Source of the DNA: Tubulanus polymorphus | Lineage: Eukaryota; Animalia; Nemertea | DNA length: 64,000 nucleotides | Direction: 5' to 3' | Assembly: GCF_964204645.1 (NCBI RefSeq) | Contig: NC_134034.1 | Location: 13,343,062 to 13,407,061 of the forward strand | Shown here: piece by piece, positions 1 through 64,000 of the stretch | Layout of the letters: every line of letters starts with the position of its first letter | Position numbering within the stretch: the stretch's first letter is position 1 | Position numbers and translations under genes: made by a program | Notes under the pieces: generated by a model | Databases searched by the model: none | Told to the model about the DNA's origin: nothing | Seen by the model: the letters and a program-made list of their open reading frames with translations, nothing else

Positions 1-3000
1 GGAGAATGTATTCACGTAACTGATGTTTGTGACGGTATCGATAATTGTAGAGACGCCTCGGATGAGAAGATCGGTTGCGGTAAATAGAAAACGTGATTCA
101 TAAAAATCTGTTTTAGTGAGAATATAATTGATAGGCCTATTATCGTGAAAATACATTTGATATGTCTATTTTCTCTAAAATATAACTGATAAGTCTATCT
201 AATGGATTACTGAATATTGAACTTGCATCGAACTTTTTATCAACCATATTTTCAGCGCGATCGTGTTCAGATGAACAGTTTCACTGCACAAGCGGGCGAT
301 GTTTATCGTTATCGTATTTATGCGATTTTAGAGATGATTGCGGGGACGGCTCCGACGAATCGTTTTGTTGTAAGTTTTCTAACGGTGTCGAAACTGAATG
401 TACGTAATTATACTGAGCCGAGATTCTAAATATACCCGCGTCGCGTATTTACTTCAGTAAACCCGGTTTGCGATGCTACAGAATTCACGTGTAAGAGCGG
501 TCAGTGTATTCCTGAGATAAAGAGGAATGATGGAATTGATGATTGTGTCGATGGCTCCGATGAGCTTCACAGTGGAGGTATAGTATTTAGCGTAGAACTA
601 TTGAGAGGTCTATGTCTTATACGTTACAGCGTTAAGGATCCTTTATACGAAATCCCCTCAAAGATTTTGATCAAAATTATAATGTATTATATTGAAACAA
701 GGAGACATCATGTCAAAATGTTACATGCGCAATTATGTCTGAAAACTCAATTTTCTCGACAGAATGTAACGGGTTCCAATGTTACGACGGTTCGTGTTAC
801 CCGGCCAGTTGGAGATGTGACGTCACTCTAGATTGTTCCGGTGGATTTCGGGAAGATGAAGTCGGTTGTCCAAAACGTACGTAATGATCATAACCATTCC
901 CTATTATCATCAGCGTTATCTATTGATCATTTTCATCTATTTCGAGACTTTCGCGAATCTGTCTTATTTCAGCGACGATGCAAGTTGGATATAAACACTG
1001 TTCGAATGGTTTCGTTTACAACTCGTCGCTGAGATGTTTGTACAATACGGATCAGTACGGTTCTGTGACTCCGTGTCGAGACTATTCACATCTCTTAAAC
1101 TGCGGTAATCATAATATATGACATTGTCGGGGTAGGTCTATAGGTAAATCGGAACTCGGGGTGCAAAGGGAAAAGAATGCCATTTTCTGGGATGAAACAG
1201 CCGCGAATGAGGTTAGAGAATTCTTAAAGAAATACATTAGAATAGATGCATTTTCCCAGAGGATCAGAATTAGCAGGTTATCGCGTTAAAATAGGGAATT
1301 TTTTCACTGGTTCATATTTGATTTGAGTTGTATATCCCTTACTCACCACGCCGTGCAGGTTTTAACCATCATCTGTCCCGACAATCGAAATGAGAATGGC
1401 CCAAATACCTCCATAGAATGATTCCCTCGGTATTGTGTTAACGAATGAGTTCAGTTTAATACTTTAACGATTTCAGACAGTTTTGTTTGTCCTAGCGGAT
1501 ATTTCAAGTGTCCCGACAGCTACTGCCTCGCAGCCGAATTCGTCTGTGACGGGCAACCGAATTGTCCCGATAAAGAAGACGAACAAAAATGTGGTACGAA
1601 ACTAAATCCAGATTCAATCGTGTTTTACAGTGATTTTTCTATCGCTTCCTAAACGGAAGATGTTTATATTGATTTACAGATGAGTTCGTCTGCCCGGGTA
1701 TGTACCGGTGTTCTTCGACTGAACAGTGCGTGCGACTGGATGAAATGTGCGACGGTAAAACTCACTGTCCGAATAACGACGACGAACGATTCTGCGACTT
1801 TATCATTCCTCGTGCTTGTACCGGTTACGGGTATTCGGTATTTTGTGAATCAGCTGATTTGACGCGAATCCCTCCCGATGGCCGGTACGCGGCGTCTCGT
1901 TCCTTAGATCTATTCAATAATACTCGACTCGTTTTGGACAACTCGACGTTCAGACCGTTCGTTTATTTGACCCATTTAGATCTGAGGTTGTGCGGCATCA
2001 CTCAGTTATCCGAAGGCGTCGTCTCGTATCTGGTGAATCTAATTTTTCTCGATTTACGTCGGAATCCGCTGGCGATTCTTAAATCAGGCAGTTTGAGCGA
2101 TCTCGGTAACCTTCGTATTCTACACTTGTACGACAACAGAGATCTGACAGTGATAGAATCGCACGCGTTTAGAAACACGTCCACTCTGACGTCACTCGAT
2201 CTACACGCAGTTAATTTAAACACACTTACAGCCGGTATGTTTTTCGGGCTTCGCTCGTTACGACGCCTGAATCTCTCAGGGAGCAACATCTTCGAAATAC
2301 AGGACGGCACTTTTATGGGTCTCGGAGAAGTCACCAATTTAGACCTAACTAACAATAAACTGGAGACATTCACAACGAAAGTTTTCAGTGAACTGACGAA
2401 CCTGACCCATTTACGTAGCAACTTTTATAAATTCTGTTGTATGGCTCCTCCAGGAGTTTCGGAAGAAAATTGTTTTCCGCCGAAGAATCAGTTTTCATCC
2501 TGCACCGACTTGATGCGTATTGACGTATTACGGGTCAGTATGTGGCTGGTCGGTAGTGTCGCCGTGGTCGGGAATCTACTTGCAATATTGATTCGCCTTA
2601 TCTTCTCTGGTTCGCCATCGGCTAACAGTCGGTTGACGGTCAGTTTGGCGGTTTCTGACTTTTTCATGGGTTTTTACATGTACATAATCGCCAGTGCTGA
2701 TTCGTATTATCGGGGTACGTACATTCTTTACGATGAGAGTTGGAGGAACGGATGGTTGTGTCATCTGGCCGGGTTTCTCGCTAGTCTATCCAGCGAAGTA
2801 TCCATGTTCATGTTACTGATCATGTCCCTCGACAGATTCGTTGCAGTTGTTTTCCCGCTTTCGCGAATGAAACTGACGCCTTCGCGAGCGCTGTTCGGAA
2901 TTGCTATCTCGTGGCTAGCCGGAGTTGTCCTTGCCGCTATTCCTCTTTTGCCTATTGATTATTTCGGAGGAGGGTTTTACTCGCGTTCCGGAGTTTGTTT

Positions 3001-4601
3001 GTCTCTACATCTGACCTCAGAGAAACGGCCCGGTTGGGAGTATTCGGTAGCTGTTTTTATCGGGATGAATTTTGTAGGTTTTATGATTATAGCGTGTTGT
3101 TACGCGTGGATGTACAGAGCCATGTCTCGGAGTCTACAAACAGCACGTCGTCAAACTAAGTGTCAAAAAAAGGAGGTGGCCGTTGCGAGAAAGATGATGC
3201 TGATTGTTCTAACTGATTTCTGCGCTTGGATGCCGATAATCGTTCTCGGTAGGTCATCTAGAAATACATCATCTCACTATCTATATTTTCTAAATTCTCC
3301 AGATTATACCCATGAATTTCGTTTGTACCGGTATTTTAGATTTTGAAGTGTTTATTAGGATTTATCATGTTTTCCTAGCGCTATCGTTTTCCTACTTCGC
3401 AAAAAGTGTAATTTTACCGGTGGCATTTGTTGCAATATTGCAACATTCAGAGGCATCTCTTCCGGTGGCTTCATTCCCGATATACAGTTTACGGTTCACA
3501 GAGAGGTGTTGTTTCATTGAAAAGAGACCTGTGCCAGATGATTCTTGTTCCAAGGAAAAGGCATTCGTCATGGAAGGTTTAACATTATTTTAATTTTTCT
3601 CATCACATATTTAGGCATGCTGGCTGTTAGCGGACAGGTAACCATACCGAGTGACGTGTACGCGTGGATAGCCGTTTTTGTACTGCCGATAAACAGCGCT
3701 ATAAATCCGATACTGTACACGATAGCCGGGCTGCGATCCATCAGGTATAATATGTCGATATCTAAATCACTTTTCGTCTTTTCCTTTGTCAGGACGTTCG
3801 ATTAAGACCTAATACACATTTGAACATCCTTTTTAGAAAAAGAAATATTGCCAGGGGGAGCAGGAACACGCCAGGTAAGAAATAATAGTCGACATTGAGT
3901 CGACATAGTTCGGCTATGTGGCCATAAGTTCCCTAATTGCACGTTTTCTTATTTTATCAAGTTACTGAGGACAGATGCAGTGACAATACAGAAGAAATGA
4001 CTCTGTTAGTACCGAACATTTTATCAGTCGTTCCTGAAGGTCAGCGTGATATGCATCACGACCTGGATCCCCTAGTATCGTATTTCCGATGCTACGCGAG
4101 CCCGCGTAGAATTCACGTCGTGGTTCAACGACTGGCTGAAGTGTTACAAGAGCTTCATTCCAGAGATCTATCCGTTAAACAACTGGATGTGAACGCAGTA
4201 CTTGTTGGAAATGCTAAGGTAGAATATGTATTGTTCATCGGTCTACTACACAGCCCAAGAATTCTTGGGTTGCGGTAATAGACCAATATGAAAGGTCTGC
4301 GGCCAGGTTTTCTGTTAGCGTGAGATTAAACCCTGGAAAGCGAGGATGGGTTAATATACTATCCTTTTTGGCACTATGAAATCCCACTCGCCATATCCCA
4401 ACATTTAACGTCAATATACAGATACTACATCGTACGATTTCTCTGTATCTTCAGAACTCGTGTACAAACATATTGGAGGTGTTTATCGCTACCGATAAGT
4501 TCTACGGTAAAACCGACTCGACGCTCGATATTCTGCAGTTCGGGAAAATTGTAAAGTATCTTCTGCGACAAATCAACAATTTGAAGAAAACAGCTGCATA
4601 G
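1..4601 (+). CDS. GRL101-like LDLa + LRR G-protein-coupled receptor (LGR type C-like); 5' end lies outside the window
   Basis: LDL-receptor class A exons at approx 1-79, 256-369, 458-577, 763-876, 973-1104 and 1477-1593 (e.g. [26 protein letters not shown]). Large exon 1680-3248 encodes LDLa, LRRs, the hinge ([20 protein letters not shown]) and TM1-6 (LAVSD, SLDRF, DFCAWMP). Further exons 3615-3744 (TM7, [11 protein letters not shown]), 3837-3874, 3962-4218 and 4455-4601 (TAG). Phases checked for the terminal exons are consistent. Confidence 0.92.
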
Positions 4602-5760: not shown

Positions 5761-6714
5761 ATGGTTAGGCCTAATATGACTCGAATGCCCAGCCCTCTCG
5801 AATACAGATTACTAACAACTTTAGATGTCAGTCATCGCTCCGATTTGGAACTAACGCTTGATTGCTGTTTCACCGTTCTCTTCGTTATCTTCGGATTTAC
5901 GGGAAACAATTTCATAGTTATCATAATGTTGAAGCGAAGCTTCTGGAAACTATCTTACAGTCGATTCCTGTTCAGTCTGGCCATTTCCGACAACGTGCGC
6001 GTAGGCGAAGCCGCTTGTATTCTCGTGAACATTATCGGGATGAGATTCCTCGGCGAAAACGTCATCTCTTTCTACAGCGTTTGGGCAGTTATCATTCACG
6101 AACAACTAGTCGTTCTGACGACGTCGATGAGTCCAGTTTTATTAGTTCTCGTAACGATTGAGAGACTCTGCGCTATCCACTTTCCTTTCACTGCCAAACG
6201 TTTCTGGACACCGAAAACATCTTCTATAATGTGCGCCACTCTGACTGCGCTGATGTTTGCTATATTTTCCTTCACGTGGACGATCACTTGTGACGACCGA
6301 TCCCCGATAGAAAAATGCACATTTCCGAGTTTTGTTTACGTTTCGACCCAATACGCCTTATATTCATTGTTCATATATTTTCCAGCAGTGATTATTACAG
6401 TAGCGACTATCGTGATGGTCGTCACGATGCGGTCGAGCGATGCGGCGTCGTCCGCCTCGGGAAACGGTTCGATAAAAACCAATCAAGCCAGTCGCATGGT
6501 GCTGGCCGTCATGACGTTCTTCGTGGTGACTATGATTCCGGTTTGTCTACTGTCGTCTCTACGCGCGGTCGAGGGCTTGGATGTCGAGCTGAGACCTGCT
6601 TCTTACATCGCTTCGAAGATATTCGCCTTGAATTATGCGATGAATTTCTATCTGCATATTCTAGCAAGTAAACAATTTCGTACCGTGGCCATCCGTGTGA
6701 TGAAATGCCAGTGA
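5761..6714 (+). CDS. Intronless rhodopsin-class GPCR (FMRFamide/peptide-receptor-like or chemoreceptor-like orphan)
   Basis: 317-aa ORF with seven hydrophobic segments and the motifs GFTGN, LAISD, TIERLCAIHFP and NYAMNFYLH. Confidence 0.85.
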   Translation: MVRPNMTRMPSPLEYRLLTTLDVSHRSDLELTLDCCFTVLFVIFGFTGNNFIVIIMLKRSFWKLSYSRFLFSLAISDNVRVGEAACILVNIIGMRFLGENVISFYSVWAVIIHEQLVVLTTSMSPVLLVLVTIERLCAIHFPFTAKRFWTPKTSSIMCATLTALMFAIFSFTWTITCDDRSPIEKCTFPSFVYVSTQYALYSLFIYFPAVIITVATIVMVVTMRSSDAASSASGNGSIKTNQASRMVLAVMTFFVVTMIPVCLLSSLRAVEGLDVELRPASYIASKIFALNYAMNFYLHILASKQFRTVAIRVMKCQ

Positions 6715-7864
6715 GAAAACATAATTCTTGAATTCATTTTAAAATTAAACGACTTCCTCCTTCTCTTCTTGAATATTTCACTATCATTTACTTTCAAATT
6801 TTACGTACAACGAACTTTATCAATTTTATTTACATTTCTCGCTCAACGAACTATTACGAAATTTTGAATCAAAGCCATTTTTATACTTTCTATTGCAATT
6901 TATATACCCTTATTTCGCTGGTTATTTTTGGGATGTCTGTTTACAAATCGTCGCCAAATGCATCTCCGTATAAAATAGAAATATAGAGATTGAATGCTAT
7001 TTATTTTCTTTAGCGATTTTAGCAAATTTTCAAAGTATATCGCTCCATACAAGTTAAGTATAATGAACACAGCTATTCAATACACTTACAAGGATGGCTT
7101 TGAACGCAAAGTTCAGACACTGTGAAATGCGTTAAGACCTAACTATGATGCGCACGACAGCTAATGACAAAACTGTAAACCCTAAATGTTCCAATCGCGG
7201 AAAATATGCCGAGGACACGATGTATGAATTAAAAAAAAAATATTGACTACACTAATCGGTCCATTAAACAAAAAAGAATTTCTGCATACGGCAATGATTA
7301 ATGATGTATGAAGCCATTATCAAAATTGATTACTTTTTTCGTTACATGAAAAAGAAATGTAGGCTATGTATGCATACTCAGCTGATCGAAACCGTTGGCG
7401 GAAGGTGGGATGGTCACACTGTAGGCAGCAACACCTTGTTTCTCATTTCTACTGAGCGTAGAGTTAACCCGGCCAGCCAGCCACCATCTTCCAAGTACAT
7501 TACTTTTTTTAAATCATGATCAAGCTACAATAACAGACCAGGTTGCTTTAGAAACGAACTGCTTACAAATTTGCGGTTTACAAAAGTGAACCGGTCGATT
7601 AGGAGAAACTAGGTATGATTTTTGTTTAGGCTTATACGGATTACAATATGCAATCGAAGTCATTCGAGCCAAACGATGCCGGAATTAATTATGGTTAACT
7701 GATTTCAGTGAAATCTTTTGCAACCTTCCTATACTACGACATTTAACCCAGCATGGCAGAAACCCGTTCACGATAGGTAAAACACAATATCCGTGTTGAC
7801 GCGATGAGGAGAGAATCCCACAATGATAATAAAAAGTCCGAAAATGAAACTTCGAGATAGTAGT

Positions 7865-7910
7865 TTATTCAACGTTTCGACTATATCCTAATAGTCATCT
7901 TCAGGAATAA
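7865..7910 (-). ncRNA. Minimal hammerhead ribozyme motif (mirror copy in the left palindrome arm)
   Basis: Exact reverse complement of 8297-8342. Confidence 0.65.
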
Positions 7911-8296
7911 TGAGATACTACAGAAATTATGAGATATATATACAATCCAGGGACAAAGAGACTAATTCAAGTAATCAGAGATGATACAAACTAAAGGAAA
8001 ATTAACGTAGAAACAGTTACACGCTAAAATAGATTAAAGGGAAGCAAACTAAGGGGTAATTATAAACAACAATAGTGAGTATAAATATAAATGACTTTAC
8101 TGACTTTAAGTTTCATTTATATTTATACTCACTATTGTTGTTTATAATCACCCCTTAGTTTGCTTCCCTTTAATCTATTTTAGCGTGTAACTGTTTCTAC
8201 GTTAATTTTCCTTTAGTTTGTATCATCTCTGATTACTTGAATTAGTCTCTTTGTCCCTGGATTGTATATATATCTCATAATTTCTGTAGTATCTCA

Positions 8297-8342
8297 TTAT
8301 TCCTGAAGATGACTATTAGGATATAGTCGAAACGTTGAATAA
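8297..8342 (+). ncRNA. Minimal type I hammerhead ribozyme motif
   Basis: ttattc-CTGAAGA-t-gactat(taggat)atagtc-GAAA-c-GTT-gaataa: stem I (ttattc/gaataa), core, stem II and a vestigial palindromic stem III. Confidence 0.65.
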
Positions 8343-9481
8343 ACTACTATCTCGAAGTTTCATTTTCGGACTTTTTATTATCATTGTGGGATTCTCTCCT
8401 CAGAAACCCGTTATCGCTGCTTTGCAGCTATATTTCTAGTTCGTCATTTTGTTGTTTACCCCAATCGCGTGGGTTTGTAGATTTAACTAACACGTGCGTG
8501 TATTTCGTCTGTTGTTACCGCCATAAGATGTAGGGCAGAGAGTTCGCCTTAATTAATGCGAAATTAATCTTATTTCTTTCATATCGAATATACCGACGAA
8601 ACATAATAAAGATTTAAGTGTCTAAATAAAATCTACCGGCTTTAAATAATTGTTTAAAACGTTCGCCTTCTGTCATTACTTGTTCGGATACCTAAATCAA
8701 CACCCACCAGCTGACTCCATTGCTATTGAAAAAAGGCTTTAGTACGAAATCGCTTTGTAAATTCCTTATAGAAAATATATCTAAACAAATAGCAATTTAA
8801 TCAACCTAGGTTTGCGTTGCTTTATGCACGAGTATGACATCATATGAACATATCACATATATATATATAGGCATCATAATGCGGGATTCCTCAAAAAACG
8901 ATTCCAATCAAGGAAGTCGCTGAAAACCGATACACTATTTCCTAAAGGTTAGTGCTATATTCGGTAAGAACCCTTTGCCTTTGCTTGGCCCACACAGGAA
9001 GCTACTTTTATCTGTATTTCTTTACAGTGCTCGTTGAAGATTAGATTGTAGGCCTATAGCAGTTTATTTGTTTTTTCTCTCATTAAATCTCTGTATTAAG
9101 CCTGAGACTGTCATATGCTTTCCGCGTGAAACAAATTTGAACTTGATCTCACTTGATACAGCGAGGCAACCATTGCTTTCTCTCGCCACAACCAGTGAGG
9201 AGTTCCTCGCGCCCAATCCAACAATGTGTTGTTTTGGTGGCTGTATTCCTGCTATGGTGGGGTTTGGGGTCACTACCAATTTTTGTTATTTACATTTTGA
9301 TGGAGGAGGGATCACTGAATATCATCACCCACCACGACCGTTAGACGTTGGAGCCAATTATGTCTATTCGATCTTACCGTGATAATTCTGGTCGTTCATC
9401 TTTTAGAGATTTCAATGTGTTTGTAACTAATTCTTATGTGTCTGTTTTAACGATTGTTAGGCAAATAATTGATAACCTACA

Positions 9482-9763
9482 ATGTGGAAGTTGAAATCAT
9501 TTATTCTGCTAATCGCCGTGATGAATCTGATAGTGATGTCGCTAGTGAAGGCAGAAACAGACGACAGCGAGTTGAATAACGAGGTCGAGGCCATCGCCAA
9601 GGCGATTTTCAGACGCACAGTCGCAGCTTACGCGGACAATGACGACGACGATGACGACCTGAAAGCTATAACTAAACGAGGATTCTTCGGTTGGATCAAA
9701 AAGAATTGTGGTGGATCCATTGGAGGGGGTGGTTTCCGTGCCAAGTGTTCATATAGATGGTAA
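9482..9763 (+). CDS. Secreted prepro-peptide: signal peptide, acidic propiece, KR site, cationic 27-aa mature peptide with two Cys (AMP/toxin-like)
   Basis: MWKLKSFILLIAVMNLIVMSLVKA / ETDDSE...DDDDDDLKAITKR / GFFGWIKKNCGGSIGGGGFRAKCSYRW*. Splice acceptor (ttgttag) about 21 nt upstream of the ATG; AATAAA at 9835-9840. Confidence 0.82.
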   Translation: MWKLKSFILLIAVMNLIVMSLVKAETDDSELNNEVEAIAKAIFRRTVAAYADNDDDDDDLKAITKRGFFGWIKKNCGGSIGGGGFRAKCSYRW

Positions 9764-9985
9764 AAAATCCGATTTCAATCATCTGACTACGTATTATATA
9801 TGATAATATATGATAATGAAATGATATAAATTACAATAAAGAAATCTATCATGATACAAAATCATTCTGAGTATTTAGTACATTCACAATCAGTATCTTG
9901 GCTCGTGTTCAAAAATGCACAAAACCCTGGGGCCGAAAATATACGTAAATAGACAAGGTTCTTCGCCTATCCCCTCCCCCAGCCC

Positions 9986-12999: not shown

Positions 13000-14118
13000 T
13001 TAGAAGCTGGTGTGATCTATATGATATGAAACCGCGATTGTTGAAACTGCGACGATGTCCCGGTCACACCTGAACCCGTCCGTAGCCGGGCATTGACCAG
13101 CTAGGTAAGTCGAAGTGGCGGCAGGTGACAGACTTCCGCGGTTGTGGCAGCACCGGCAGCGGCTGGCCAGATACCTTTTCAGTTCCAGCCGAAACCGCGC
13201 CCCGGTGATGCAGTATAGAAAGAAGTTAATGGCGTTGTTTGAATAAGTCAGCAACTCGAAGACTGAGTACAGCAAAGTCACGTGACCTTTGTAACGCACG
13301 TCGGCCGAGTACTTCCAACCGGAAGCGACGATATTGAGCACAACAATCGGTGACGTCAGCACTAGGAACACGATGCTGGTGGCGACGAGCATTACGCCCA
13401 CGGAGCGATTCACAGACGTTTTGACGTTGTTGATTACGTGAATAGATTTCGCATGTGCGGCATAAAGGGATTTCTGTCTATAATTCTCCGACCGGACCAG
13501 TTTAAACGCTATAAGAACGTTGCAAATAGATAGTAACGCGACAGGAACGCCCGAACAGGCGGCCATGTCGATCACATTGAAATATACCCAGAACTGTGTC
13601 CACGATGCTTTCGGTCGACAACCAGTGGCCGTTAACGTCAACGAAATCGGCACTACACTGTTCAGCCCAATCGACGCTAAAACGATGAAAAATACCAATA
13701 ACTTCCCGTTCCTTAACGTGCAAATCGATTTGGCTTTCAACGGTCGCCAAATGGATACGACCCGTTCTGTAGCGACGGTCGTTAAAATCCAAGCAGACGC
13801 GGGTACCGACGCGTAGGTGAGAAAATTAGCCGTTTTACACGTGACGTCACTGATCTCGTGAATATCCGTATCTAGCGAATAGCAGACGAACCGCGGAAGC
13901 ACTGACGCGTACAACACGAACAAATCGGCGAACGCCAACATTCTCAACTGATAACAAGACGTCGAAAGTCGCATGGACTTTTGTCGAAATACGACAATCG
14001 ATAAGATATTTCCGACGCTGCCCAGGCATATGATTATCGGTAGTCCTATTTTACGGATCGCGTAGGCCGTTCTGAAATCCGTGGTCAATGTCGCGTTAAC
14101 ACCGTCAACTATTTTCAT
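13000..14118 (-). CDS. Intronless rhodopsin-class GPCR (FMRFamide/sex-peptide/TRH-receptor-like orphan)
   Basis: 372-aa ORF with GSVGNILS, LAFADL, SAWIL..VATERVVSIWRP, FLVLTSP and YSNNAINFFLYCITGARFR. Confidence 0.9.
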   Translation of the reverse strand: MKIVDGVNATLTTDFRTAYAIRKIGLPIIICLGSVGNILSIVVFRQKSMRLSTSCYQLRMLAFADLFVLYASVLPRFVCYSLDTDIHEISDVTCKTANFLTYASVPASAWILTTVATERVVSIWRPLKAKSICTLRNGKLLVFFIVLASIGLNSVVPISLTLTATGCRPKASWTQFWVYFNVIDMAACSGVPVALLSICNVLIAFKLVRSENYRQKSLYAAHAKSIHVINNVKTSVNRSVGVMLVATSIVFLVLTSPIVVLNIVASGWKYSADVRYKGHVTLLYSVFELLTYSNNAINFFLYCITGARFRLELKRYLASRCRCCHNRGSLSPAATSTYLAGQCPATDGFRCDRDIVAVSTIAVSYHIDHTSF

Positions 14119-20614: not shown

Positions 20615-23600
20615 ACTCGCGAATACGAACCTAATTTCGAGTTTATTTTCCGATGCGATCGACAAAACGTACGATTTCTCCATCGTCGGTTCGTTAAGGA
20701 AGCAGACGACCGCGTAACGACCGGCCGGCAACACGAAACAATCGCTCGCCTCGTACGCAACAATGAACACCATCGGTTTACCGCGCGTCGTCGCGGCGAT
20801 ACGGTCCTGCATCCGATGTATCTGCGACGTCGTTAAAGGCACTGCGTCTTCGTCGGATAGCTGAACGAAATAAAAATACGCGGTGAACAAAAAATGGTCG
20901 GAATATTTTTTTTGGAGGTAAAAATTGATCATACGCGGAAATTATCCGATCCCGTACCTTATAAACTTTAAATCCAACCGGATGTTTTTCTCCGACGTTT
21001 TGCTGCATTAATGAAATGGATAAAGCTGTCGGCTCCGACGCTGAAAATATCAACAAAAATATCAATCATGAAAAGTATACCCTGCAAGGCTTGGTATTAC
21101 CTAATGAATAAATTTAGCCCCCGGGTTAAAGGTAATACCAGTCTATAAAACTGGGCCCAGGACCCAGTTCCACAGTTGTGAGTTAGAGTTAACTCTGAGT
21201 GAAAGTTAGTTCATTTTCAATGTTCTCACCCAGAGTCAAATCTTAACTTAGAACTGCGGAACTGGACCCTGGTCTTTATCTCAGATGACGACGAATTGAG
21301 TTAGCCCCCGGGTTAAAGTTGATACCAGTCTATAAAACCAAGGCCTGTAGTAAAGTATAATACATCTTTAACGATTCATTTTCCCTATTTCTACAATCTT
21401 TTACCGCAGGATCTAACTTTCAATGAACAAGGAAAGCCCATTTTTTAAAGTAAACCTGATGTGCATAAGAGAAAATGTTTTTCCCTATCGTTGACCCTGG
21501 TTTCAACTTACCCCAGGCTTCGGGCACGGTTACTAAGTATTGAGGATTGGTACCGTGACTGCGAAAAGACGTCTGCCCGCCGGAGTTGACGCCCGGTTTC
21601 CAACGTCCGAAAAAATGCTGCGTATTTTCTGCAATTAATGAAACGAAGAAGACCATAAATTAGACTCCGCCGCAGTAACGCTCAGGACCCAGTTCCACAG
21701 TTCCGAGGTAAGATTTGACTCTTGAGTTAACACATTGAAAATGAATTAACTTAAACTCAGAGTTAACTCACAACTGTGGAACTGGGTCCAGGGTTTTAAT
21801 ACAGATAATCAAAAATTCCCTGATCTAAGATATCCTCGTAGGTTCCTCGTACCACTCATCAAGAATAACAAGACACCGGAAATTCGAAATTTCCTGACTT
21901 TCCCTGATTACCGAGAAGAGAGTCAGAATTCACAGATTTTCCCAAAATCTGGAACTCCCTGTGATTTCCCTCATCAGTTTGTGATTAGGAATGCAACAAC
22001 TTACCGAGTTTTATAAGTTTCAACTCTTTTTTGAACGAAGTCAAACTCTTATTGACAAACATCTGTACATTGTCAAACGGCAGAGGACTGAAATTAGAGA
22101 CATATACACGAATATAGACAATGATGATTTTTCGAAATCAGAGTTGTTGTCTTTTTAACGAGTACTGAACAGTCCAGTCTGGTTATTGGACCCGTAGTGG
22201 TTATTGGCGGGTTGAGGGTAACAAGAACCATTTAACCCGCTTAAATAATGAGTGCACTCAACAGGTAAAGGGATGAACAAAAATTCTTCAGAAGATTTTA
22301 CGGGTACTCACAGGACCGGTATGATGGATGATTTAACGGGTACTCACAGGACCGGTATGATGGATGATTTTACGGGTACTCACAGGACCGGTATGATGGA
22401 TGATTTTACGGGTACTCACAGGACCGGTATGAAGGATGATTTTACGGGTACTCACAGGACTGGTATGATGGATGATTTTACGGATACTCACAGGACCGGT
22501 ATGATGAATGATTTAACGGGTACTCACAGGACCGGTATGATGGATGATTTTACGGGTACTCACAGGACCGGTATGACGGATGATTTTACGGGTACTCACA
22601 GGACTGGTATGATGGATGATTTTACGGATACTCACAGGACCGGTATGATGAATGATTTAACGGGTACTCACAGGACTGGTATGATGGATGATTTAACGGG
22701 TACTCACAGGACTGGTATGATGGATGATTTAACGGGTACTCACAGGACCGGTATGATGGATGATTTAACGGGTACTCACAGGACCGGTATGATGGATGAT
22801 TTTACGGGTACTCACAGGACCGGTATGAAGGATGATTTTACGGGTACTCACAGGACTGGTATGATGGATGATTTTACGGATACTCACAGGACCGGTATGA
22901 TGAATGATTTAACGGGTACTCACAGGACCGGTATGATGGATGATTTTACGGGTACTCACAGGACCGGTATGACGGATGATTTTACGGGTACTCACAGGAC
23001 TGGTATGATGGATGATTTTACGGATACTCACAGGACCGGTATGATGAATGATTTAACGGGTACTCACAGGACCGGTATGATGGATGATTTAACGGGTACT
23101 CACAGGACCGGTATGATGGAAGATGAGAATATACGAATGAGGAACTGTTTTTCTTGTTTCTCTTCCATCGTGGTCGGCATCACTAAATACGACCCGGGAT
23201 CCAACAAATACCTGAATTCAACACAAAAAAAATATCAGTTTACCTTTTCTATACTTTACAAAGAAATAGATTTTAGACCAGGTTAAAAAATTGTTTCGTT
23301 TTCTAATAACGACTCGAGAGTTTCAAATTTTGACCCAAGTCCATAACTTGAACTTGGTAGACCCTAACGTCCCGGAAAAAAAACATTTTGCAAGAAAAGA
23401 TTATCAATTTCAAACTTTAAAAAGAAAAACAGACTTTTATAAATCAACTCTAAAATGTTCAAATTCATTTCCCGGATTAAGGGCTATGTTAGAAATTATT
23501 CATTTACGGTATTTCATACGTACCCATAAGGCTAAAAATAATTGATACCTTGTTTCTCCGCTCTGCTGAGCTTAAATGTTGACCCGGCCGCCTCTCTACC

Positions 23601-44372: not shown

Positions 44373-46574
44373 CAAAACGAATCTTTCTCGATCTTTTTCT
44401 CAAACGAATTTTTTTTTTTTTTTAATCATTCACGGTTCCATACCGAACTTCAAACATTTTCCCTCGCGCCCGCATTCAGCCCAAAACATGTGGAATAAAA
44501 CCTTGGGCATTAATAAAACAACACTCACACTTAGAAAGACACATAATCATTATCAATCTTTACACAAGGACATTTACGTATGAATATAATTTGCAAAAGT
44601 GCTAGAATATTTTTCTTCACGAGTATTTTTTTCATCCTTTTTTCTATAATTTTTTCCTATAAAACGACATTTGTGAGCAGTGATTGCAATGAATGAACAT
44701 ATATATATATATATAATAATGATACATAATCTGAATATAAGTGATGCCATGGTTTTGCCAAACCGGTCGCATCCAGTACGCGACCTTTCCATTCAAAACG
44801 AATAAAAATTACGATCTAGAAAAAAATACCTCGACCTAAATTCTCGTATTTGGACCCATACTAAAAAACGACGACAATGATTGGAGTGTGCGACTAGGTA
44901 AGAATTATTTCGCTAAATAAATGGAATGAGACATAAATGGAGACGAGGAATACTGAAAATGCGGGCCCGGATTTTATAGACCGGGGCGAGGGACGGGCGG
45001 TAAACGAACTCAAACCCCGCCACCTAGTGTTAATTCCCGCACTGAATGATTAGACCGGTTCTCGGAGCTCCGTTCGATTCTATAACGATTCCAACAAGAA
45101 TTCAGACCCGATCTTTTTAAGAAGCCCGTTCAGTCTAGACACAGTAAATCCGGCATATTACTCATATAATCTATCGAGGATTTTACTGGTGAATCTCACA
45201 CCTAACAAAACCATCATGAGAATGCACATAGTCGATAGATTGTCAAGAAATATAGATATTGTTGGTTATGTTACAAAACCCATTAGCCCAGGAATGAACT
45301 TAGCATTCAGCAAATCTTGCCTTAGTCGGTTAAAATGAGAGAACAATGTGGATGAAGTGAATGACAGATACATAACAATAAAAGGCGAGATTCACATATA
45401 TGAACACAATACAAGATGGCGGCTGATTTAGAAATATTATGACTGCAAACAATTATTAAATCAAATACTTTCGACACAAAACCGCAGCAGGCTTGGATTT
45501 AATCCAAATTTTATCCAGCGAACCGCGCTTAATCCGGATCCGTTTGGACCGGTTTACTTAATCCGGTTTATGAGAAGCACGAATTAAAAACATCATATTT
45601 TTACGCGCATTTTGTTTACATACAGTTAGATAGATAGTGATTGAGATACGGATTACACTGAGTTGGATTAAGACTGAAAAAAATGATACCTCGTTTCATC
45701 CCGGTCACTTTCTTAAACTGCGATAAAATTTGTTATCAGTTCATTTCTATAACTGCCCAGCCTGATCATGATTTCTTAAAAAGTAATGTACAGGGCACAA
45801 GCTATAGGCGGCCGGACAGATCCTTAAGTTAAGCAAAAATGAGAAACGAGGTATCAATTTTTTAGCCTATACATAAATAAATATAAAGGCCCTATATCGA
45901 ACTGGAATTTTGCCAAGTAAGTTCTAAAAGGGAGATCGTGCGCTTGTATTCATGTAACACATGTGATCCGGTGTGTTCTCAATCAGAAGAGTGACAGCAG
46001 TTCACAGCAGTGCGCGCTCACTGTTAAACATACCGTATCAGTAATAACTGACTGTTCAAACACAAATACATATTATTAACAAAATCTATTCGATTCACAT
46101 AATCCAATACCTGTCTCTCTAATATAATCACAGCATTGTCACTATCGAATATTAGTAATACACCGATCCTCTCGCTCTGACAACTGACAAGTCAATAAAT
46201 CATTTATTTTTCCATCCCCAATTGCAGGAATTTCGAAAAAAATTTACTTTCAATTTCACCAGTCTCGTACTGACCGACCCGACAGAGTATCTCTCTTCTC
46301 AATATGTGTTTCTTAAACTCTTAAGTATTTGACCCCAACTTGGGGTAGCTTCAATTTTACCGCAGTAAGAGACAGAGTCTACTGTATTTCACAAACTGTA
46401 TCTCGAGTAAGAGAGACTCTATTGCACATGTTTAGCTCAGTAGCTAATAAATAAGTATTCATCTCTAAACATTTTCAAAGCAAAAACAACTTTAACTTTT
46501 ATCACAAATTTCTAAAATGTTTTCATCCTCTCCTGTCCTGAATTCCCTTCGATCTTTTATCCGCGCGCAAAATC

Positions 46575-49500
46575 TCATAGATTCTTTTTCGTTTCTTCAG
46601 CCACAGCAGCGCCTCTGGTGGTGCCGTTTGACACTAAATGAATGTCCGTCTGCCCTGCCGCCGTCGACGAGGTCTTCGACGTCTGGTGTAGATTAGCGGC
46701 GAGCGCGTGCCACAATCGGCGCAGGTGTTCGTGAATTACGACGCCGAGACTGACGCCGACAAGCGGACCGATCCAGTAGACGAGCACGTATTCCAGTTTA
46801 GTGTTTCCGACACAGTTCCACGTTTGAGCCGTCGCGTTCGCCGGATTCAGGTACATCCCAGTCAAATTCAATCCTACAAATACACGACAATCGAGAGAAG
46901 ACTATAATAATACATTCATCATTCAATACAACTATGATATTTGTAAATTCAGATTAGGATTGAAACAAAATTAACTCTGGATCCAGTTTCTCGAACAAGT
47001 TTAACTCAAATTTTTGGTATAATTGCCAATGGTTACTTCATGTTTTCAATGAGGACAACAATTCAAACTTAACCGTTTTAGGCTTAAACTTTTTCATGAA
47101 ACCTGACCCAGGTCGCATAAGATCAGACTCGATTGTCGGATCGTAACAAAAAAGGGCAGCCCAAAAAAAATGATGGACTGGTACAAGTTTCAAAAGTCCC
47201 CTGGAACTAGAAAATATTCCATTGTTGGAAGCTCATATATACTTTGAATTTTTTGGAATAGTTGAGCTCTAAAAAAGGAGTAGAAACCACTCTCAATTAT
47301 TTGTCAGTTAGGTCTAGGTACAAGCGCGGATCTATGGGGTTTTATAGGTCTCCTGGAAGACCCTCAAAAAATTTTACAACTCAAAATGCAGGAAACGGCT
47401 TCAAATCAGTGCTGGAATCTCAAAATTTTCTGTGGGGGCCACAGGAAGGACTTCGCGCTGAAGCAGTGTAAGCCTCTTCGCGCGCTGTGCTCGGTGTGTT
47501 ATCAGTGCCCTTTTCTTTTAGGTATGTCCCTAGAATTCCGAGAAGACCCTCAGATTTACCCCTAGATCCGCAACTGAGGTACCCACCCCAGGAGAAATCA
47601 GCAACCTATACTTACCAGCTAAAGTCATCATGATTCCGAAAATGCCCTTCGCGAACGGTTCGTAACGCTCGAACATAAAGCGTTTAGTCGTCGTTTTCGC
47701 GATGATCGAATCGATCACCGTCGCCGAGAGTTCGATCGCCAATCCGAGCATGACCGGTACGTTCAGGTGCGACTCGCACGTCTGCTCGTTGAACCTCGCG
47801 GCGTGTTCGCTTGACAGCTCCAAACGCCACGTTTGACGCGCGTACGCGAACGCCACCTGTCCGGCGACCATCTGAATCGACATCAACACGACCGTGCGCA
47901 GCAGACGCTGTTTGCCTTCCATGTATTTGCGGAAATTACGGATCGGATTCGAACACGAGTCGCCGAACGTGTGCGACGCCCAGTAACCGAGGAAAAAACT
48001 CTGCACGCAATACGCGCCCATACCGTACGCGCGGCGCACGAATCCGTTCTCGAGTCCGCACGCGATCGACTGGAACGTCGATATCGCGTCGGCCGTGTAC
48101 GGCTGCACACGCCGCGACATGTATTTACAATTGCCGATGCGCAGTAGACGCGCGAGCAGCATCGTCGCGCTGATGTAGAACACGGTTACGATGATGTGGT
48201 ACTCGCGTATTTCCGGTTCCGGTTGACGACCGATCAACACGTCCCATAATCGCTGTACGATCGCCTGCAAATATACAGAATATTGAATCATGAATAACGC
48301 AGCTGTGGCAATTGAGGATCCACCAGGGGCGCTAGTAGTCAATCAGTTTTATGCACTCCATTTTGTTGATACTACTGTGGCAACTGAGGATCCACCAGGG
48401 GCGCTAGTAGTCAATCAGTTTTATGCACCCCAGTTTGTCCTTAATAAATGCTACTGTGGCAACTGAAGATCCACCAGGGGGCACTAGTAGTATGCGCGTA
48501 ATAATTTTCTAAATTTCATCTATATTCAATACATAACTATTGACGCTACTTCATGAAGTATATGGCACCTGCGGATCCACCAGGTCAGGTGTAACATAAT
48601 ATACACTATCAATGTTATGCTCACTCAATGCTACTGTTGCGTTGGAAGATTCCAGCTGTGGCAATTGAGGATCGACCGAGTGCCATCAGGCTGTAATCCC
48701 TACAGAGGGAGGATGAGTGAAGATTCACCACGAGTTCCAATAGTCAGTCGGTATAATTTTGTTGTATAAGTAATCGATATTTAATATAGCGCAACGATCT
48801 GCGCGGGGTGCTCAGTAACTCAAATACAGGATTTTTAATCTCGATTCATCTATTCTGTACAGGTCAAATTTCTACGCTTATTCTAAACCTGGTTTTAAAT
48901 GCACGGAATGAAATTTATTGCGGATCGCATGAAATGGATTTAATTTGCATAAATTCACGCGAAATCGATGCCAAACATGCCAACGCAGAAATTTAATCCA
49001 TTAAAATCGCGCGAACGCGATGAAAATCTAACTGAAATTTTGCAGGCATTAAATAAAGATCTTTCATAGAGTAACTCAATATCGAGTTTATGATGTACGC
49101 ACATGCTGTTATAGGCAGACGAATATTAAAAACTAATTATAATTGCATTAATCAGGAAGAAAAAACGTGTGGCTGAAACAGATTTACTACGTGTAAAAGC
49201 AGTATATAAACCTATAGATAAGAGGAGGCTGCGAGGATTTTATTTTGAATTCAAATATCATTAGTCAAATATCGTAGTCCTGAGGCCGGTTCAAAGCCCC
49301 TCCCCCCAAGGGGACTATAGCCGCGATCGCACGAGCATTTTTGGCCCGTACCAAACTTGGCCCGGAACAACTGTTCACACTGGTGCTGAATGGGCCCGAG
49401 CCTGTTTGGCCCGACCAAAAACGTCGGACCAGGCCCGAGCCAAATTTTAGCACCAGACAAATGATTGCGTTTGAATTGCAACTGGCACCGGAAATGATCC

Positions 49501-52500
49501 ACTTCGCTTTGTTTGAGCATTGTTTAGTATCGAGTGAATGGTTTACGTGTGAACGCGCTCTCTATTTAGGCACGGGCCAAATTAGGCCCGAGCCTGATCC
49601 GTGCATATTTGGCCCAGGCCAAATTGTCTCCGTGTGATCTTGGATTAAGACTACAGTCTAAGCTCTGACATTTTGGTTTTATAACCAGTCCCACAACTTC
49701 CGAGCAGGTATTAACATTTCCAGGCGCAAGTCCAGCAATAGTTTTTGCGCCTTTGATTCAAATGAAACCTAAGGCAGTTCTTTAGATCGGGTAAATGACA
49801 AACTAGAATTGAATCGACTACTCGATGATAAGATTGCAGTATTTAAATTCAGATCTATTCCGGAGAGATAAGGTAAACAGCCCGAAGACCGTGACGTGAA
49901 CGTTCCCAGATCTCGCACGCATACATTATCATCCAACTCAGAAACGATACATCATCAATAATCTTCATTCAAATTCGATCAACAGAAGATGGAAAGATTA
50001 GTGCCAGCACATGTGTTACCAACTTAAACCTGGAGCCAGGGATTTACTAAGACTGTTGTTTTTTTTAAATCTTAAAATAGGGATTGACCCTGTTATTTGT
50101 TTTGTTGGTGAATTTTGTTTGATTTTCTGATTGAGTGTCCCTTACTAACCCACCACACCTGCCGGGAAGGAAACAGGGGGTTTAATTTTGAAATCGGAAA
50201 TCAAAGTACAGATATAGTTGTGCGATCGGCGGTGACTGTTGTTTCATTGTCCATAGAACCGAGACCAAGAGGGTCTTAAGACTAGGAATCTATGAATAAG
50301 ATTTCTTCTTCTCAAATTGCATATTGAAGGGCAGGGGTCAGCACGGTACAGCACAACATAATGCAGTTTACAACAAATATTTTTCAAGGGGGCCTAGGAT
50401 TTTTTTAACAAAATGCAAAGCCACAAAATACAAGCTCACTGAAAAAGCATACATCACACTTCACTTACACTGAATGATTCTAAAAAACCCATTTTCACTT
50501 TAATTCCGCTGATTGAAGAAAAAAAACAATAAATTTTTACAAATTTCATAAATTTCTTGCTTGTTTTCCGCAGTTTATATCGGAGTCCTATAATTGTTCG
50601 AAAGTAGAAATACGAACCATCACCGAAAAAGGGAAAATTGAAAAACGGAAATATTGATAAAAACCTTGTAATAGGAAAATAAAACTTATAAAGGAAATTC
50701 GATATAACGACATGCTTGAAATTGGGAGCCAAAAATGGAATTGTAATCGAAAATTTCGAAAAAAAAAAGAAAAATACAAATCGACCGAAAAAATTCAAAT
50801 TAAGCGTAATTTTTCGAACCTCGAAGAATTCTTTGGAAAATCCCTGAAAACAATCGACATTATCAGAGATATAGAAAACTAAGACTGGAATATCACACGG
50901 GAATCCCGTGTTAGGAAGTGTTTGTAAGGAATCCAGGAGTCGTAGGAAACGTGACCCAAATCAAGATTCACTCATTACAGTTAGAAACAGTAAACTTTCT
51001 GAATTGTTTTTAATTCTAGAATTCTGGTTCCAGATTCAATTTCGAGATCGATTTCATCGCTTTAAACATTACCTCTTCGCGCCAACGATTTTCCACAATC
51101 GGATCGACCAAATCCATGTTCTTGTGACGTTAATTAGCCAGTTTTTAAATTTGTTTATTTACAACAATCCGCCTTAATGTTGCCATCTTCACACATCAAA
51201 ATAATTCCATTGATAAAACAATAAATATCTGTGTGAATAAATATCTATGATGAAGAGACTCCCACAATTATAATGAAAAGTCCGAAAATGTTTCTTCATT
51301 GATCTGCTGCTAGTAGTTTATCGCGGGGTTCTCTATAGAAATCCATATAGAAAACAATACGCTAACTAAAAAACGGTTCAAACTTCTCGAGAGAGATCGT
51401 AACTTCTCTGAGGACGGAGAAATGAAACTAAGTCACGAGGCGTCGTTGAACAGTAAAATAGTTATTTATATTATTGTGCCATATTGTACTAGTACAGTAA
51501 GCGTCGACTAAACCTCCTCTGATGACAGATAGCGAGAGAGACAGCTGTTTATATTCATTCATAAGCAGCACACAACGTATTTCAATTATTATCATATCAT
51601 CATTCGTAATATCGAAGTAATTATCGACAAAAATCTTATGTCAACGAAAAATTTTCTTTTTTTCTTTGATTTTACAGACGCTCGTGAATTTTCTGAAAAT
51701 GACCAAAACACGCTGCGTTTTTTTTCAACAGACGCGCGACAACCTCCTAAACACGTCCTGGAGTCGATTTTCGAATACGAGAATCCGCTCGGATCTAAAA
51801 ACGACGTCGATTGAGTCATTTACCGAATTGAAGACTCCGCGAGGATCTAAAACCTATGCAACCGGAGTCATTTACTGAATTCAAGACTCTGCAAAATCCT
51901 AACACCTATATCCCGGAGTCATTGCTAAGAATATTATGAATATTTTCCTTTAGTAAGTCGGTTCCGTCATATGCTTAATCATGAAAATATTCCACCTGCC
52001 AAACATCTAGGAAATATCCATTGATCTCGATAATTCCGTACTGGGAAAAAACAACCGATTCTGATATCGACGATAATTTCTCCATTTCATCTCGTAAGTA
52101 TTTCTATATATCTCGAAAGTTGGATTAAGATTTAGAAGATAATCCGTAATAGCGCTCAGATCCGACCGCTCAAACTGGAGATAGATTTTATCGTTGAAAT
52201 CAATCCGCAATAAGAGAATTTGTTTACGGTTAGTAGAATCGACAATACTGTAACAGTTGAAACAGTCTCAGTCGGGTCGGGTAATATCATAGGCCTACGG
52301 CATACGGCATACGACCTGATATAAACACATACATGACGTGCACACGAACCACGGCGACCGCAGAGATCAATGCAAGTTAAAACATATGTTGTCATCGTTG
52401 ATTTTATAACTAAACCTATATAGAAAATGTTCATCGATATTGTATAACTAACTAACAATACAGAGCGCCGCCAGTTTCCGTCCGTTTATAAATTACCCGA

Positions 52501-53419
52501 GTTTTACCTCGATTTCTACAGATTCAAAATGTTGGTACTAACGCCTCTAAAATATAAATCATGACTAATCCGACCCTCCTCATGTCTGAAGATAGAACGC
52601 CTAACCTAGACTTTAATAAACTTAAAGGACTCGTATTCCTCTGAAGAAATAATTTCGAAAGATATCAAAAATTTTACCCCCCCCCCTAAAAAAAACTGAA
52701 CCTACTGATTTCATGTTCATATCGTCGTCATTTTATCATCGAATTCCCGACGAAATATCATTTCCACGACAGAACGCGAGGATTGAACGCACTTCGCACC
52801 AATAACGCCTGATTTTCACTTTTCTAGCACAAAGGCCACACACAGGATACAGAGTCGGCCGCACATGTGTGGTCAATTTTATTGGGTTATTATATATTTG
52901 CTGGTCAATAATTTCAGCCTATTATTTGCTTCGATGGTTTAACAGTTAACATCGAAGTTGGTCACAACGAATTACTGTAATTTCGCAATAATTATGGTGG
53001 AAAATAATCTAGGCGAATATCGACCCCAGAAACTGAAGTTCAAGTCTCGATTACTGCTATTACATCGGTAGAGCTCGTTAGCCCTCCAACAATTTGCGAT
53101 CAGAAATGTTTTCTCCGATTAAAGAAAATCAGCGCGATTTCAAGCGTCGAAAAATGAGTAACGAAAAATTTGGAATTCGAAAAAAATGTACGTGATTTAT
53201 TTCCAAATTTCTAATTTTTTTCCCAAAATTCCTAAATTTTTGAGAAATCGAGAAATCCTTCGGAAGATTTGCCGCATTCGACTTTCTGAGTGATTAAAAC
53301 GTTTTTTTTTTGTAAAAAGAAAACATTCTTACCGGTTTTGCGGTCGCGTTTCGAATGGCTTCCATTTCATTGAGGCGTACGACCTCCCAAGACATGCCTT
53401 CGTTTAACATGAATACCAT
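46575..53419 (-). CDS. Unorthodox (super)aquaporin, AQP11/AQP12-like
   Basis: Exon 48264-47616 (divergent first motif CSNPI; IELSAT) and exon 46873-46575 (TGMYLNPANAT, VYWIGPLVG). Candidate first coding exons 53419-53333 and 51117-51073 are both phase 0, matching the acceptor at 48264. Confidence 0.88.
48300..48492. repeat. Three tandem copies of a repeat with near-consensus CTCF motifs
   Basis: ctgtggcaaytgargatCCACCAGGGG(G)CRCTAG three times. Confidence 0.75.
49319..49645. mobile_element. MITE with repeated ggcccg sub-motifs (Harbinger-like)
   Basis: Imperfect termini gccgcgatcgcacg...cgtgtgatcttgg and internal mirrored gttcacac/gtgtgaac. Confidence 0.45.
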
Positions 53420-53507
53420 GACGACCTGATTATCAAAACTGATCTATATTTCCTGAGAGAAGAGAGGCGGCTAAAGTAAGCTACTCGAACAGCTAGCTAC
53501 CCGATCA

Positions 53508-53547
53508 ACTAATGATAGCTATCAAACGGTCGGCTCTCGTTTTTATA
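53508..53547 (-). promoter_or_regulatory. Candidate TATA box plus initiator for the distal aquaporin first exon
   Basis: TATAAAA (53547-53541) about 30 nt upstream of TCATT (53515-53511) and about 125 nt upstream of the ATG at 53419. Confidence 0.45.
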
Positions 53548-56024: not shown

Positions 56025-57490
56025 ATGGATAGTCCTAACTCTCGCGAAGGCGTCGTTAAAGACGAAGAATCGGGTATTTATCCTTATCGAAACTGGTTGA
56101 TTTTTGTCGGATATCGTGGGCAATTTTCATCTCTTCGATCGGGTCGAAAATTTTAGGCATTTCACTCGAAACGTTCGTCGTTAAAGCGCTTTATACCCGA
56201 GATTCAATATAGTCTGTGTAAACTTCATTCGCATTTATTTTCGTTTCTCGGCCCTACTGGCTACTAATAATAATTTAATCTTTTTGAGTGTAGTCTTTTG
56301 TCTGCGTTATTGCATGGTTAATATGGAAAAGTTTCCACAAAAGCGATAATTTTTAATAGCCCCCACCCATCCCATCCTCTCTGACAGGGATTCGCACCTG
56401 GCCTGATGGTAGGTAGGCATTGCCATTCATTGATTGAGTCATTCACTTGAGCCTCGCCATCATGATCATCATGGCACGCGGTCTTTTATGGCAGGGATTT
56501 GTACCGTACAAATCCCAATAGACCGCGTGCCCTCCACCAGGTCAAGCCGTCGGGTATCATCATCATCAATTGACGGATCCATTGGAGGCTTTACAGCCTA
56601 TTAATATGGTATGGATCCAGGGGTTTCACTAATTGATGGATAATATATTGTTATATATATCCAGGTTACACGTATATTCCGGCCACTAGACGTCCTGATG
56701 GAACGTGGAGAAAAGCTCGCCGGGTTAAAGATGGTTACATTCCGCAGGAAGAAATGCCTGTGTAAGTATAGGAGCCTTAGTAGCTTAGAACCTTGAAAAT
56801 TGGCAACTTTACTTTAGCTGAACTTAACAGGTTTAATACAGGCAGTGTATTATTGACGTAGTTTCTATCTCCATTGAAAGATGGCAGCACCAGTTGAACA
56901 TAGAAAAATATTAGAAATTTAATAGAATCAAAAAAATGTTCAAATTATCTCCAGCACTTTCGGGTATTAATAAGTCAGTACTGAAGCGGTTTTAATTTGA
57001 TTCACATTTTTTCAGGTACGAAAATAAAGGCGTCCAATGGTTGAAGAGTAAACCGAATTTACCGCCAGGCCTCGCGGTTGAGACGACGTCTGCAACAAGC
57101 GCGTCATCGTCGTCGACGACAGACGGACTTTCGAAAGCCGCGAAAAAAAACCTCAAACGCAAAGAGAAGAAAAAGCAGCAGTCGGCGGCGACGACCGAAT
57201 CGGTAACCGAGTCGATGTCGAAAGTGCAGATATTCCCACCAGAGGGCGCTAAAACCGGGCGTCGCGGCGATAAGGACGGCGGCGGCGCGGAATTATCGGC
57301 TGAACAGAAAGAGAAGTTAAAACGCGTGCGAGCGTTGCGCAAGAAACTGAAACAAATCGACGATTTACGCTCGCGTATTGACTCCGGTCAGCTCGCGAAT
57401 CCGGAGAAAGATCAGTTGGAGAAGATCGCGAAACGTGCGGAGATCGCGAAGGAAATTGATGATCTAGAATTGGATATGGAAGACGTGTAG
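56025..57490 (+). CDS. PYM1: Partner of Y14 and mago (exon junction complex disassembly factor)
   Basis: Exons 56025-56073, 56665-56761 ([27 protein letters not shown]) and 57016-57490 (YENKG...[11 protein letters not shown]...EKDQLEKI); phases consistent. Confidence 0.93.
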
Positions 57491-63757: not shown

Positions 63758-64000
63758 CTGTAAACCAAATGTGAGACTTTCTTTCGATATCGCAATCAGA
63801 AAGTTTAGAACAAGACTTAAGAATTTGTAAATGAAACAAATTGCAGTAGAACCCGGGCTAACTGGGATTATTCGGGACCAACAAAATTCATTTGGTTCAT
63901 GAGAAATCCCGATGTTCTTACAGTTAATAAGATAAAAACCCACTATCTACAGATTAAAAGAACCTGACGATGATCTCTAGGGTGAGATGGAAACGTCGTG

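Follow-up and report, generated by a model that had tools for sequence, protein, structure and literature searches.

Natural β-hairpin antimicrobial peptides (AMPs) constitute a rare class, for which the available text of a 2026 review recorded only 25 families from five phyla, Nemertea not being among them (PMC13001179). In the same text, members are characterized by a net charge of +1 to +8, a Cys pair, and a single hairpin, and experimental evidence is required for inclusion. The annelid arenicin-1 and -2, the insect thanatin, and lactoferricin B are short, cationic peptides cut from a precursor, in which one Cys pair closes the hairpin; in thanatin, the N-terminus extends beyond the ring as a tail (PMC13001179, in the part available). 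A related precursor plan is found in the annelid BRICHOS-AMPs (arenicin, alvinellacin, capitellacin, and nicomicin), which are synthesized as precursors of about 200-240 aa composed of a signal peptide, an acidic proregion containing a BRICHOS domain of ~100 aa, and a C-terminal cationic disulfide peptide. Among sea-urchin peptides, centrocins are two-chain heterodimers and strongylocins are Cys-rich. In both groups, short anionic propieces neutralise the mature peptide, as described in the accessible portion of PMC10608444.

For Nemertea, the available portions of two reviews on marine invertebrate AMPs contained no mention of the phylum (PMC10608444, PMC11767717), and a hoplonemertean proteotranscriptome yielded no matches to known AMPs in the part of the report at hand (PMC7460313). 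Two Cys-rich peptides predicted to be antimicrobial were described from Cephalothrix mucus in a study that, in its accessible text, retained only peptides with at least four Cys (PMC12846013), and a weak antibacterial activity was described for nemertide α-1 in an excerpt of PMC12565628. No comparable peptide was found in the available part of PMC9132205, and no hairpin AMP described for Nemertea was found in the literature examined, which was partly available as excerpts.

In the window, that is, the whole stretch of 64,000 nucleotides of Tubulanus polymorphus DNA analysed here, a 93-aa ORF was found on the plus strand, running from the ATG at 9482 to the TAA at 9763 with no internal stops (Table 1). 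The choice of this start codon was supported by two in-frame stops at 9470-9475 and by an A at -3. The original prediction had read this ORF as a prepropeptide with a signal-like start, an acidic propiece bearing an RR and six consecutive Asp, and a KR site, and every count in that description proved right. Residues 1-24, called as a signal peptide by inspection and a heuristic, presented a GRAVY of 1.65 and no acidic residues, and the 42-aa propiece contained 13 D/E and 6 K/R. The tail was likewise recounted and found to be as claimed, with five basic residues (3 Lys, 2 Arg), no D/E, and two Cys enclosing a Gly-rich loop of 12 residues (6/12 being Gly); the computed monoisotopic mass of the oxidised mature peptide was 2936.41. 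Its last residue is a Trp followed by the stop, so that there is no Gly for amidation.

Table 1. Features of the peptide locus (positions in the window)
Feature	Position	Strand	Basis or remark
TA run, possible TATA box	8858..8869	+	Sole TATA-like matches in 8401-9480
κB-like site	8883..8892	+	Single exact copy of the 9-mer in the window
Two candidate splice donors (GT 8948 and GT 8964), non-coding first exon	8945..8969	+	
Branch-point-like CTAAT, T-rich tract, candidate acceptor AG ending 9460	9427..9460	+	Splice profile
Predicted signal peptide, residues 1-24	9482..9553	+	K3, K5, hydrophobic core, V-K-A at -3..-1
Acidic propiece, residues 25-66, net -7	9554..9679	+	Sequence
Internal RR, residues 44-45	9611-9616	+	Within propiece
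Six Asp, residues 54-59	9641-9658	+	Within propiece
KR convertase-type site, residues 65-66	9674-9679	+	Propiece end
Predicted mature peptide, residues 67-93, 27 aa, +5	9680..9760	+	Sequence
Cys10 of the mature peptide	9707-9709	+	
C-terminal nonamer, strict hydrophobic/polar alternation, ending Tyr-x-Trp	9734..9760	+	OMP β-signal likeness
Cys23 of the mature peptide	9746-9748	+	
AATAAA polyadenylation signal, 72 nt past the stop	9835..9840	+	Sole such hexamer in 9764-9950

The structure of precursor residues 64-93 was predicted with AlphaFold from the single sequence without an alignment and with no prior information on Cys pairing. The five models presented pLDDT values of 73.9, 67.4, 55.2, 51.9, and 51.3, two of the five being confident. 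The best one was a β-hairpin with strands at mature residues 7-15 and 18-26 and a turn at Gly16-Gly17, in which, judging from the strand ends, Cys10 would face Cys23 in the hairpin register. When the whole precursor was modelled (pLDDT 52), mature residues 1-10 formed a helix and the remainder was structureless, with no hairpin, although this model is unreliable and its hairpin region fell below a pLDDT of 50. The hairpin that had been proposed from the sequence was therefore recovered, with the Cys in register, in the best single-sequence model, whereas three of the five models were poor. A further claim, that the N-terminus is the amphipathic part, did not hold, since the helical hydrophobic moment of the N-terminal nonamer was just 0.37, and the idea that the peptide acts through an amphipathic helix at its N-terminus was judged weak. 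Instead, the C-terminal nonamer presented a β moment of 1.10, against 0.35 for the Gly-rich N-terminal strand, a value reached at the same place by 0.1% of 20,000 shuffles and anywhere by 1.5% of them. In this strand, F19, A21, C23, Y25, and W27 lie on one face and R20, K22, S24, and R26 on the other, which makes this strand, rather than the N-terminus, the amphipathic part.

We consider it somewhat better than an even chance that the locus encodes a new family of host-defence peptide, a disulfide-tied β-hairpin that a short acidic propiece, and not a BRICHOS domain, would hold inactive. In this mechanism, the precursor would be secreted, the signal being removed after Ala24, and the propiece, whose net charge between RR and KR is -6, would neutralise the mature peptide (+5) along the secretory pathway until a prohormone convertase cuts after KR, freeing the 27-residue cationic peptide. 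A Cys10-Cys23 disulfide would then close the β-hairpin, whose C-terminal strand would expose a hydrophobic face (F19, A21, C23, Y25, W27) and a cationic one (R20, K22, R26), while the aromatic N-terminal tail (F2, F3, W5, I6) may anchor the peptide in lipid. The hairpin would bind anionic bacterial membranes and permeabilise them, defending the animal, with release probably occurring into the mucus or from blood cells. This reading is favoured by the rarity of the architecture in simulated windows and the coherent gene signals around the ORF (both given below), by the best hairpin model, by the β moment of the C-terminal strand, by the charge and Cys spacing, and by the precedent of the centrocin and strongylocin propieces.

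Regarding the class to which such a peptide would belong, the +5 charge lies within the +1 to +8 range, and Cys10 and Cys23, whose bond is predicted, lie further apart than the minimum of three residues between paired Cys; in contrast, the class trends of 11-25 aa and of Arg exceeding Lys were not followed by a peptide of 27 aa with three Lys and two Arg. It resembles arenicin-1/-2, thanatin, and lactoferricin B as a short, cationic peptide with a single Cys pair closing a predicted hairpin, and thanatin also in the N-terminal tail, although no sequence similarity to arenicin, thanatin, or lactoferricin B was found. It differs from the single-disulfide hairpin AMPs in length, in the preference for Lys over Arg, and in the absence of BRICHOS. 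The arenicin ring has a size of 18, against the 12-residue Gly-rich ring of the present peptide, and nicomicin combines a helix with a six-residue loop, unlike the hairpin predicted here (both from the available part of PMC10608444). The precursor shares with those of the annelid BRICHOS-AMPs the order of signal, acidic proregion, and C-terminal cationic disulfide peptide, but it is much shorter at 93 aa. The absence of BRICHOS had been anticipated, and it was supported by a 42-aa propiece and by a Pfam search on the precursor that found no BRICHOS and gave only GRP, at an E of 0.1, below the cutoff. A short anionic propiece is also present in the centrocin and strongylocin precursors, to which no similarity was detected and whose products differ in being two-chain or Cys-rich. 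Against the defence-peptide reading stand the three poor hairpin models and the disagreeing whole-precursor model, the departure from the class in length and Arg content, the weak amphipathicity of the N-terminal strand, a charge of +5 that is modest across 27 aa, the lack of a homologue in which conservation could be assessed, and the fact that nemerteans are known more for the toxins of their mucus than for AMPs, as set out in the accessible text of PMC6410017. A hairpin AMP here would bring a new phylum to a rare class, but the precursor plan is common and the expression evidence thin. A BRICHOS-free, Gly-rich palaeonemertean hairpin would give access to the effector arm of immunity in ribbon worms and reveal a class that escapes mining guided by BRICHOS, and its length of 27 residues allows immediate synthesis and assay.

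The original prediction could not assign the peptide to a known family, and the sequence searches, the PDB, and the nemertean neuropeptide catalogue did not change this. A homologue search with the precursor returned one candidate and none at E ≤ 1, residues 54-93 compared with longer proteins returned three candidates and none at E ≤ 10 (weak evidence), phmmer found no matches at E ≤ 0.001 among 1.84 billion representatives, and a metagenome pattern search gave 592 matches, of which none was confirmed. The word-index protein search covered proteins of at least 51 aa, and since a 27-residue query needs very high similarity amid billions of sequences, these blanks indicate that the collections searched contain no close relative. 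Matches in the PDB sequence search (E 0.7-1.8) were compositional only, and a fold search with the 30-residue hairpin, a size too small to inform, gave no rows in Foldseek and one row at Z 2.3 in VIA. Within the 64-kb window, no paralogues were found by tblastn, blastn, or a scan for signal-like ORFs.

The absence of a paralogue cluster in the window also speaks against the idea that the product is a toxin of the mucus or proboscis, cytolytic or acting on prey or predator ion channels, instead of or besides being antimicrobial. This idea merits weight because the host is a nemertean and not an annelid, and precursors with an acidic propiece and a dibasic site are typical of toxins too. Moreover, nemertean mucus and proboscis secrete peptide toxins (PMC6410017, available part), and palaeonemertean mucus contains lineage-restricted secreted peptides with no database match (PMC12846013, available part). 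The α-nemertides, neurotoxin B, cytotoxin A, and parborlysins come from the same phylum and are likewise secreted and basic, but in the accessible text of PMC6410017 these known nemertean toxins carry 3-4 disulfides in knots or in helical folds of ~55-95 aa, whereas the present peptide has two Cys, that is, one pair. Altogether, a toxin is considered unlikely, though with an appreciable share of the probability.

That the product is a disulfide-ringed neuropeptide or peptide hormone acting on a GPCR is a good deal less probable than that it is a toxin. Proneuropeptides share the plan of signal, acidic spacer, and KR, and GPCR genes lie on both sides of the locus, though such genes are abundant; on the other hand, the peptide occurs as a single copy, lacks the amidation Gly, and combines a +5 charge with an amphipathic strand. 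Motifs of the mature peptide were searched as exact strings in the available supplement of PMC8557429, which covers nemertean, brachiopod, and phoronid neuropeptides and names T. polymorphus 328 times, and four of the five were absent. The fifth occurred seven times, and the two occurrences inspected belonged to a brachiopod FMRFamide precursor, which is unrelated. Within that part of the catalogue, therefore, identity with a known neuropeptide family, which the original prediction had named as a possible refutation, was not observed.

Whether the ORF is a gene at all was addressed by simulation, by local signals, and by sequencing runs. A filter for the full architecture, which required a signal, then an acidic propiece and a dibasic site ahead of a cationic tail, was passed by one of the 121 ORF ends of the window itself, by none of 300 windows (0/27,820 ORF ends) under an order-5 Markov null, and by two of 300 (2/28,203 ORF ends) under a block-wise order-2 null, a rarity that is somewhat overstated because the filter was designed post hoc with the ORF already seen. 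The GC3 of the ORF was 0.55, against 0.41 and 0.29 in the flanks, and the Gly run was encoded by mixed synonymous codons.

Upstream, the role of the TA run as a TATA box is putative, TA repeats being common, and the site that we take to match the κB consensus, with 18 looser matches on both strands of the window, may serve as a hint at most. The two candidate donors ranked as the top two of 132 GT sites in 6800-9440 and in the top 0.7-0.8% among all GT of the window, and the candidate acceptor, 21 nt upstream of the ATG, scored 4.7 (top 5.7% of 6606 AG sites), below an AG at 9305 but inside the range of -1.4 to 14.5 obtained by leave-one-out for 12 true acceptors; both profiles were built from just the 12 introns supported by RNA in one sequencing run (X3). 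From these signals, the gene would likely consist of a non-coding first exon and a single exon with the entire coding sequence. By eye, a second acceptor-like, T-rich tract was noticed at 9005-9027, with a CAG ending at 9027, 64-80 nt past the candidate donors, and the 5′ UTR may consequently contain more than one intron.

Three sequencing runs (X1, X2, and X3) cover the stretch, their contigs revealing neither strand nor level. In X1, possibly from the same sample as the source of the window, one contig of 1366 letters spans the ORF with two differences, both outside it; the ORF is matched throughout and is thus not a consensus error. In X3, from another sample, GT-AG joints were present in four genes besides this one, so that the run behaves as RNA; it contains a 152-letter contig at depth 3 identical to 9531-9682 inside the ORF. 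This contig gives a weak hint of transcription of the peptide gene, although X3 carries intronic pieces too and the contig may be background. No spliced reads across the candidate donor and acceptor were seen in the runs, and X2, with no splice joints among those listed and zero cover of the ORF, carries no weight. In X1, a depth of 39 was also recorded in the bin 9538-9754, against 33.2 on either side, which indicates that a further short contig with at least 85% likeness maps there, corresponding either to low-complexity Asp codons or to a fragment of a paralogue from another genomic location.

Exact look-up in a collection of 15 billion proteins found one of three sequences submitted, the GPCR at 13003-14118, while the peptide precursor and the GPCR at 5761-6711 were missing as exact sequences. 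The missing precursor beside a neighbouring GPCR that is present, the lack of homologues, and RNA support consisting of one contig at depth 3 would all suit an ORF that arose by chance, or a silent gene remnant, from which no peptide is made. This is nevertheless improbable, given an architecture seen in just 2/600 simulated windows, an intact frame with GC3 above the flanks and mixed synonymous codons in the Gly run, and donor, acceptor, and polyadenylation signals in the correct order. Annotation often misses short ORFs with low or tissue-restricted expression, and the locus is very probably a genuine orphan peptide gene absent from the annotation.

The amphipathic C-terminal strand of the putative hairpin also raises a more specific mode of action, in which it would mimic the β-signal of bacterial outer-membrane proteins (OMPs) and, by pairing with BamA strand 1, prevent OMP assembly as darobactin does, killing Gram-negatives. 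The consensus of this signal is polar-x-G-x-x-aromatic-x-aromatic, and a nine-residue internal signal has also been described (available parts of PMC10945584 and PMC13067283). The last eight residues of the peptide fit three of the four defined positions, with Arg as the polar residue at -8 and a Tyr-Arg-Trp end supplying the aromatics at -3 and -1, and all three positions of the internal signal fit as well (PMC10945584, in part). At -6 the consensus Gly is replaced by Lys, and this Gly was found in just 6 of the 18 OMP ends examined.

A 10-position profile was built from these 18 ends (17 E. coli K-12 OMPs and the OmpA barrel end, with BamA, LptD, PhoE, and others omitted), and the peptide end scored 4.8 bits, with 13 of the 18 true ends scoring higher and five lower by leave-one-out. 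Such a score was reached by none of 32 non-OMP ends, by 0.13% of 9,899 non-OMP internal 10-mers, by seven of the 3872 10-mers that precede a stop in the window (the peptide included), and by 0.27% of shuffles; when the two faces were preserved, however, 2.8% of shuffles reached it. The profile penalises Arg at -8, Lys at -6, and Cys at -5, and the idea itself arose after the sequence was seen. The likeness is most simply explained as a property of all amphipathic strands that terminate in an aromatic residue.

The C-terminus of the peptide is free, and known mimics also lack the Gly, which was present in 6 of 246 Llp peptides in the accessible part of bioRxiv 10.64898/2026.09.25.754295. The darobactin and Llp C-terminal peptides share with the mature peptide an aromatic-x-aromatic dyad on a pre-organised β-strand, the C-terminus of darobactin-B being K-R-F (PMC13067283, in part), but the Llp dyad, unlike the one observed here, is not terminal (same preprint, available part). 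The BamA β-signal mimics described in the sources at hand are all bacterial products, whereas this peptide is animal and its binding to BamA is hypothetical; no animal peptide acting as a β-signal mimic was found in the literature, including the available text of a 2026 BamA review (PMC13659652), subscription papers being mostly outside this scope. A precedent for an animal hairpin with a target in the envelope machinery is thanatin, which inhibits LPS transport (PMC13001179, available part).

An animal-evolved counterpart of darobactin, in which the free C-terminal strand of a disulfide-stapled hairpin encoded by a gene jams the lateral gate of BamA, is regarded as very unlikely, as is killing by β-signal mimicry in general. 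If true, no host-defence peptide of an animal would previously have been known to kill by such mimicry, and this one would found a nemertean family; a functional likeness would also offer a new natural scaffold for targeting BamA. Insect attacin- and diptericin-type peptides likewise end in an aromatic-x-aromatic strand, and attacin reportedly reduces outer-membrane protein levels. No link between attacin or diptericin and the β-signal was found in the literature search.

Other elements were observed in the window. A perfect inverted repeat at 7805-8402, with 290-nt arms and an 18-nt spacer, was extremely deep in all three runs; it lies ~450 nt upstream of the putative promoter and probably represents a MITE of very high abundance. 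An LDLa-LRR-7TM receptor, which we take to be GRL101-like, occupies 1700-3346, and two intronless rhodopsin-type GPCRs, at 5761-6714 and 13000-14118, flank the peptide gene. Between opposite-strand calpain-like pieces, a 337-aa ORF at 22273-23286 is formed by a 12-residue tandem repeat and probably corresponds to a 36-nt minisatellite in an intron. The region 46500-64000 contains spliced genes supported by run X3, among them presumably a PYM-like one (near 56-58 kb) and an NDUFS1-like one (58.7-63.7 kb). An aquaporin-11-like gene was also found there, which marks the window as palaeonemertean, its exon at 47617-48264 being 100% identical to the aquaporin-11-like protein of T. polymorphus, the next match being that of Lineus longissimus, at 58%.
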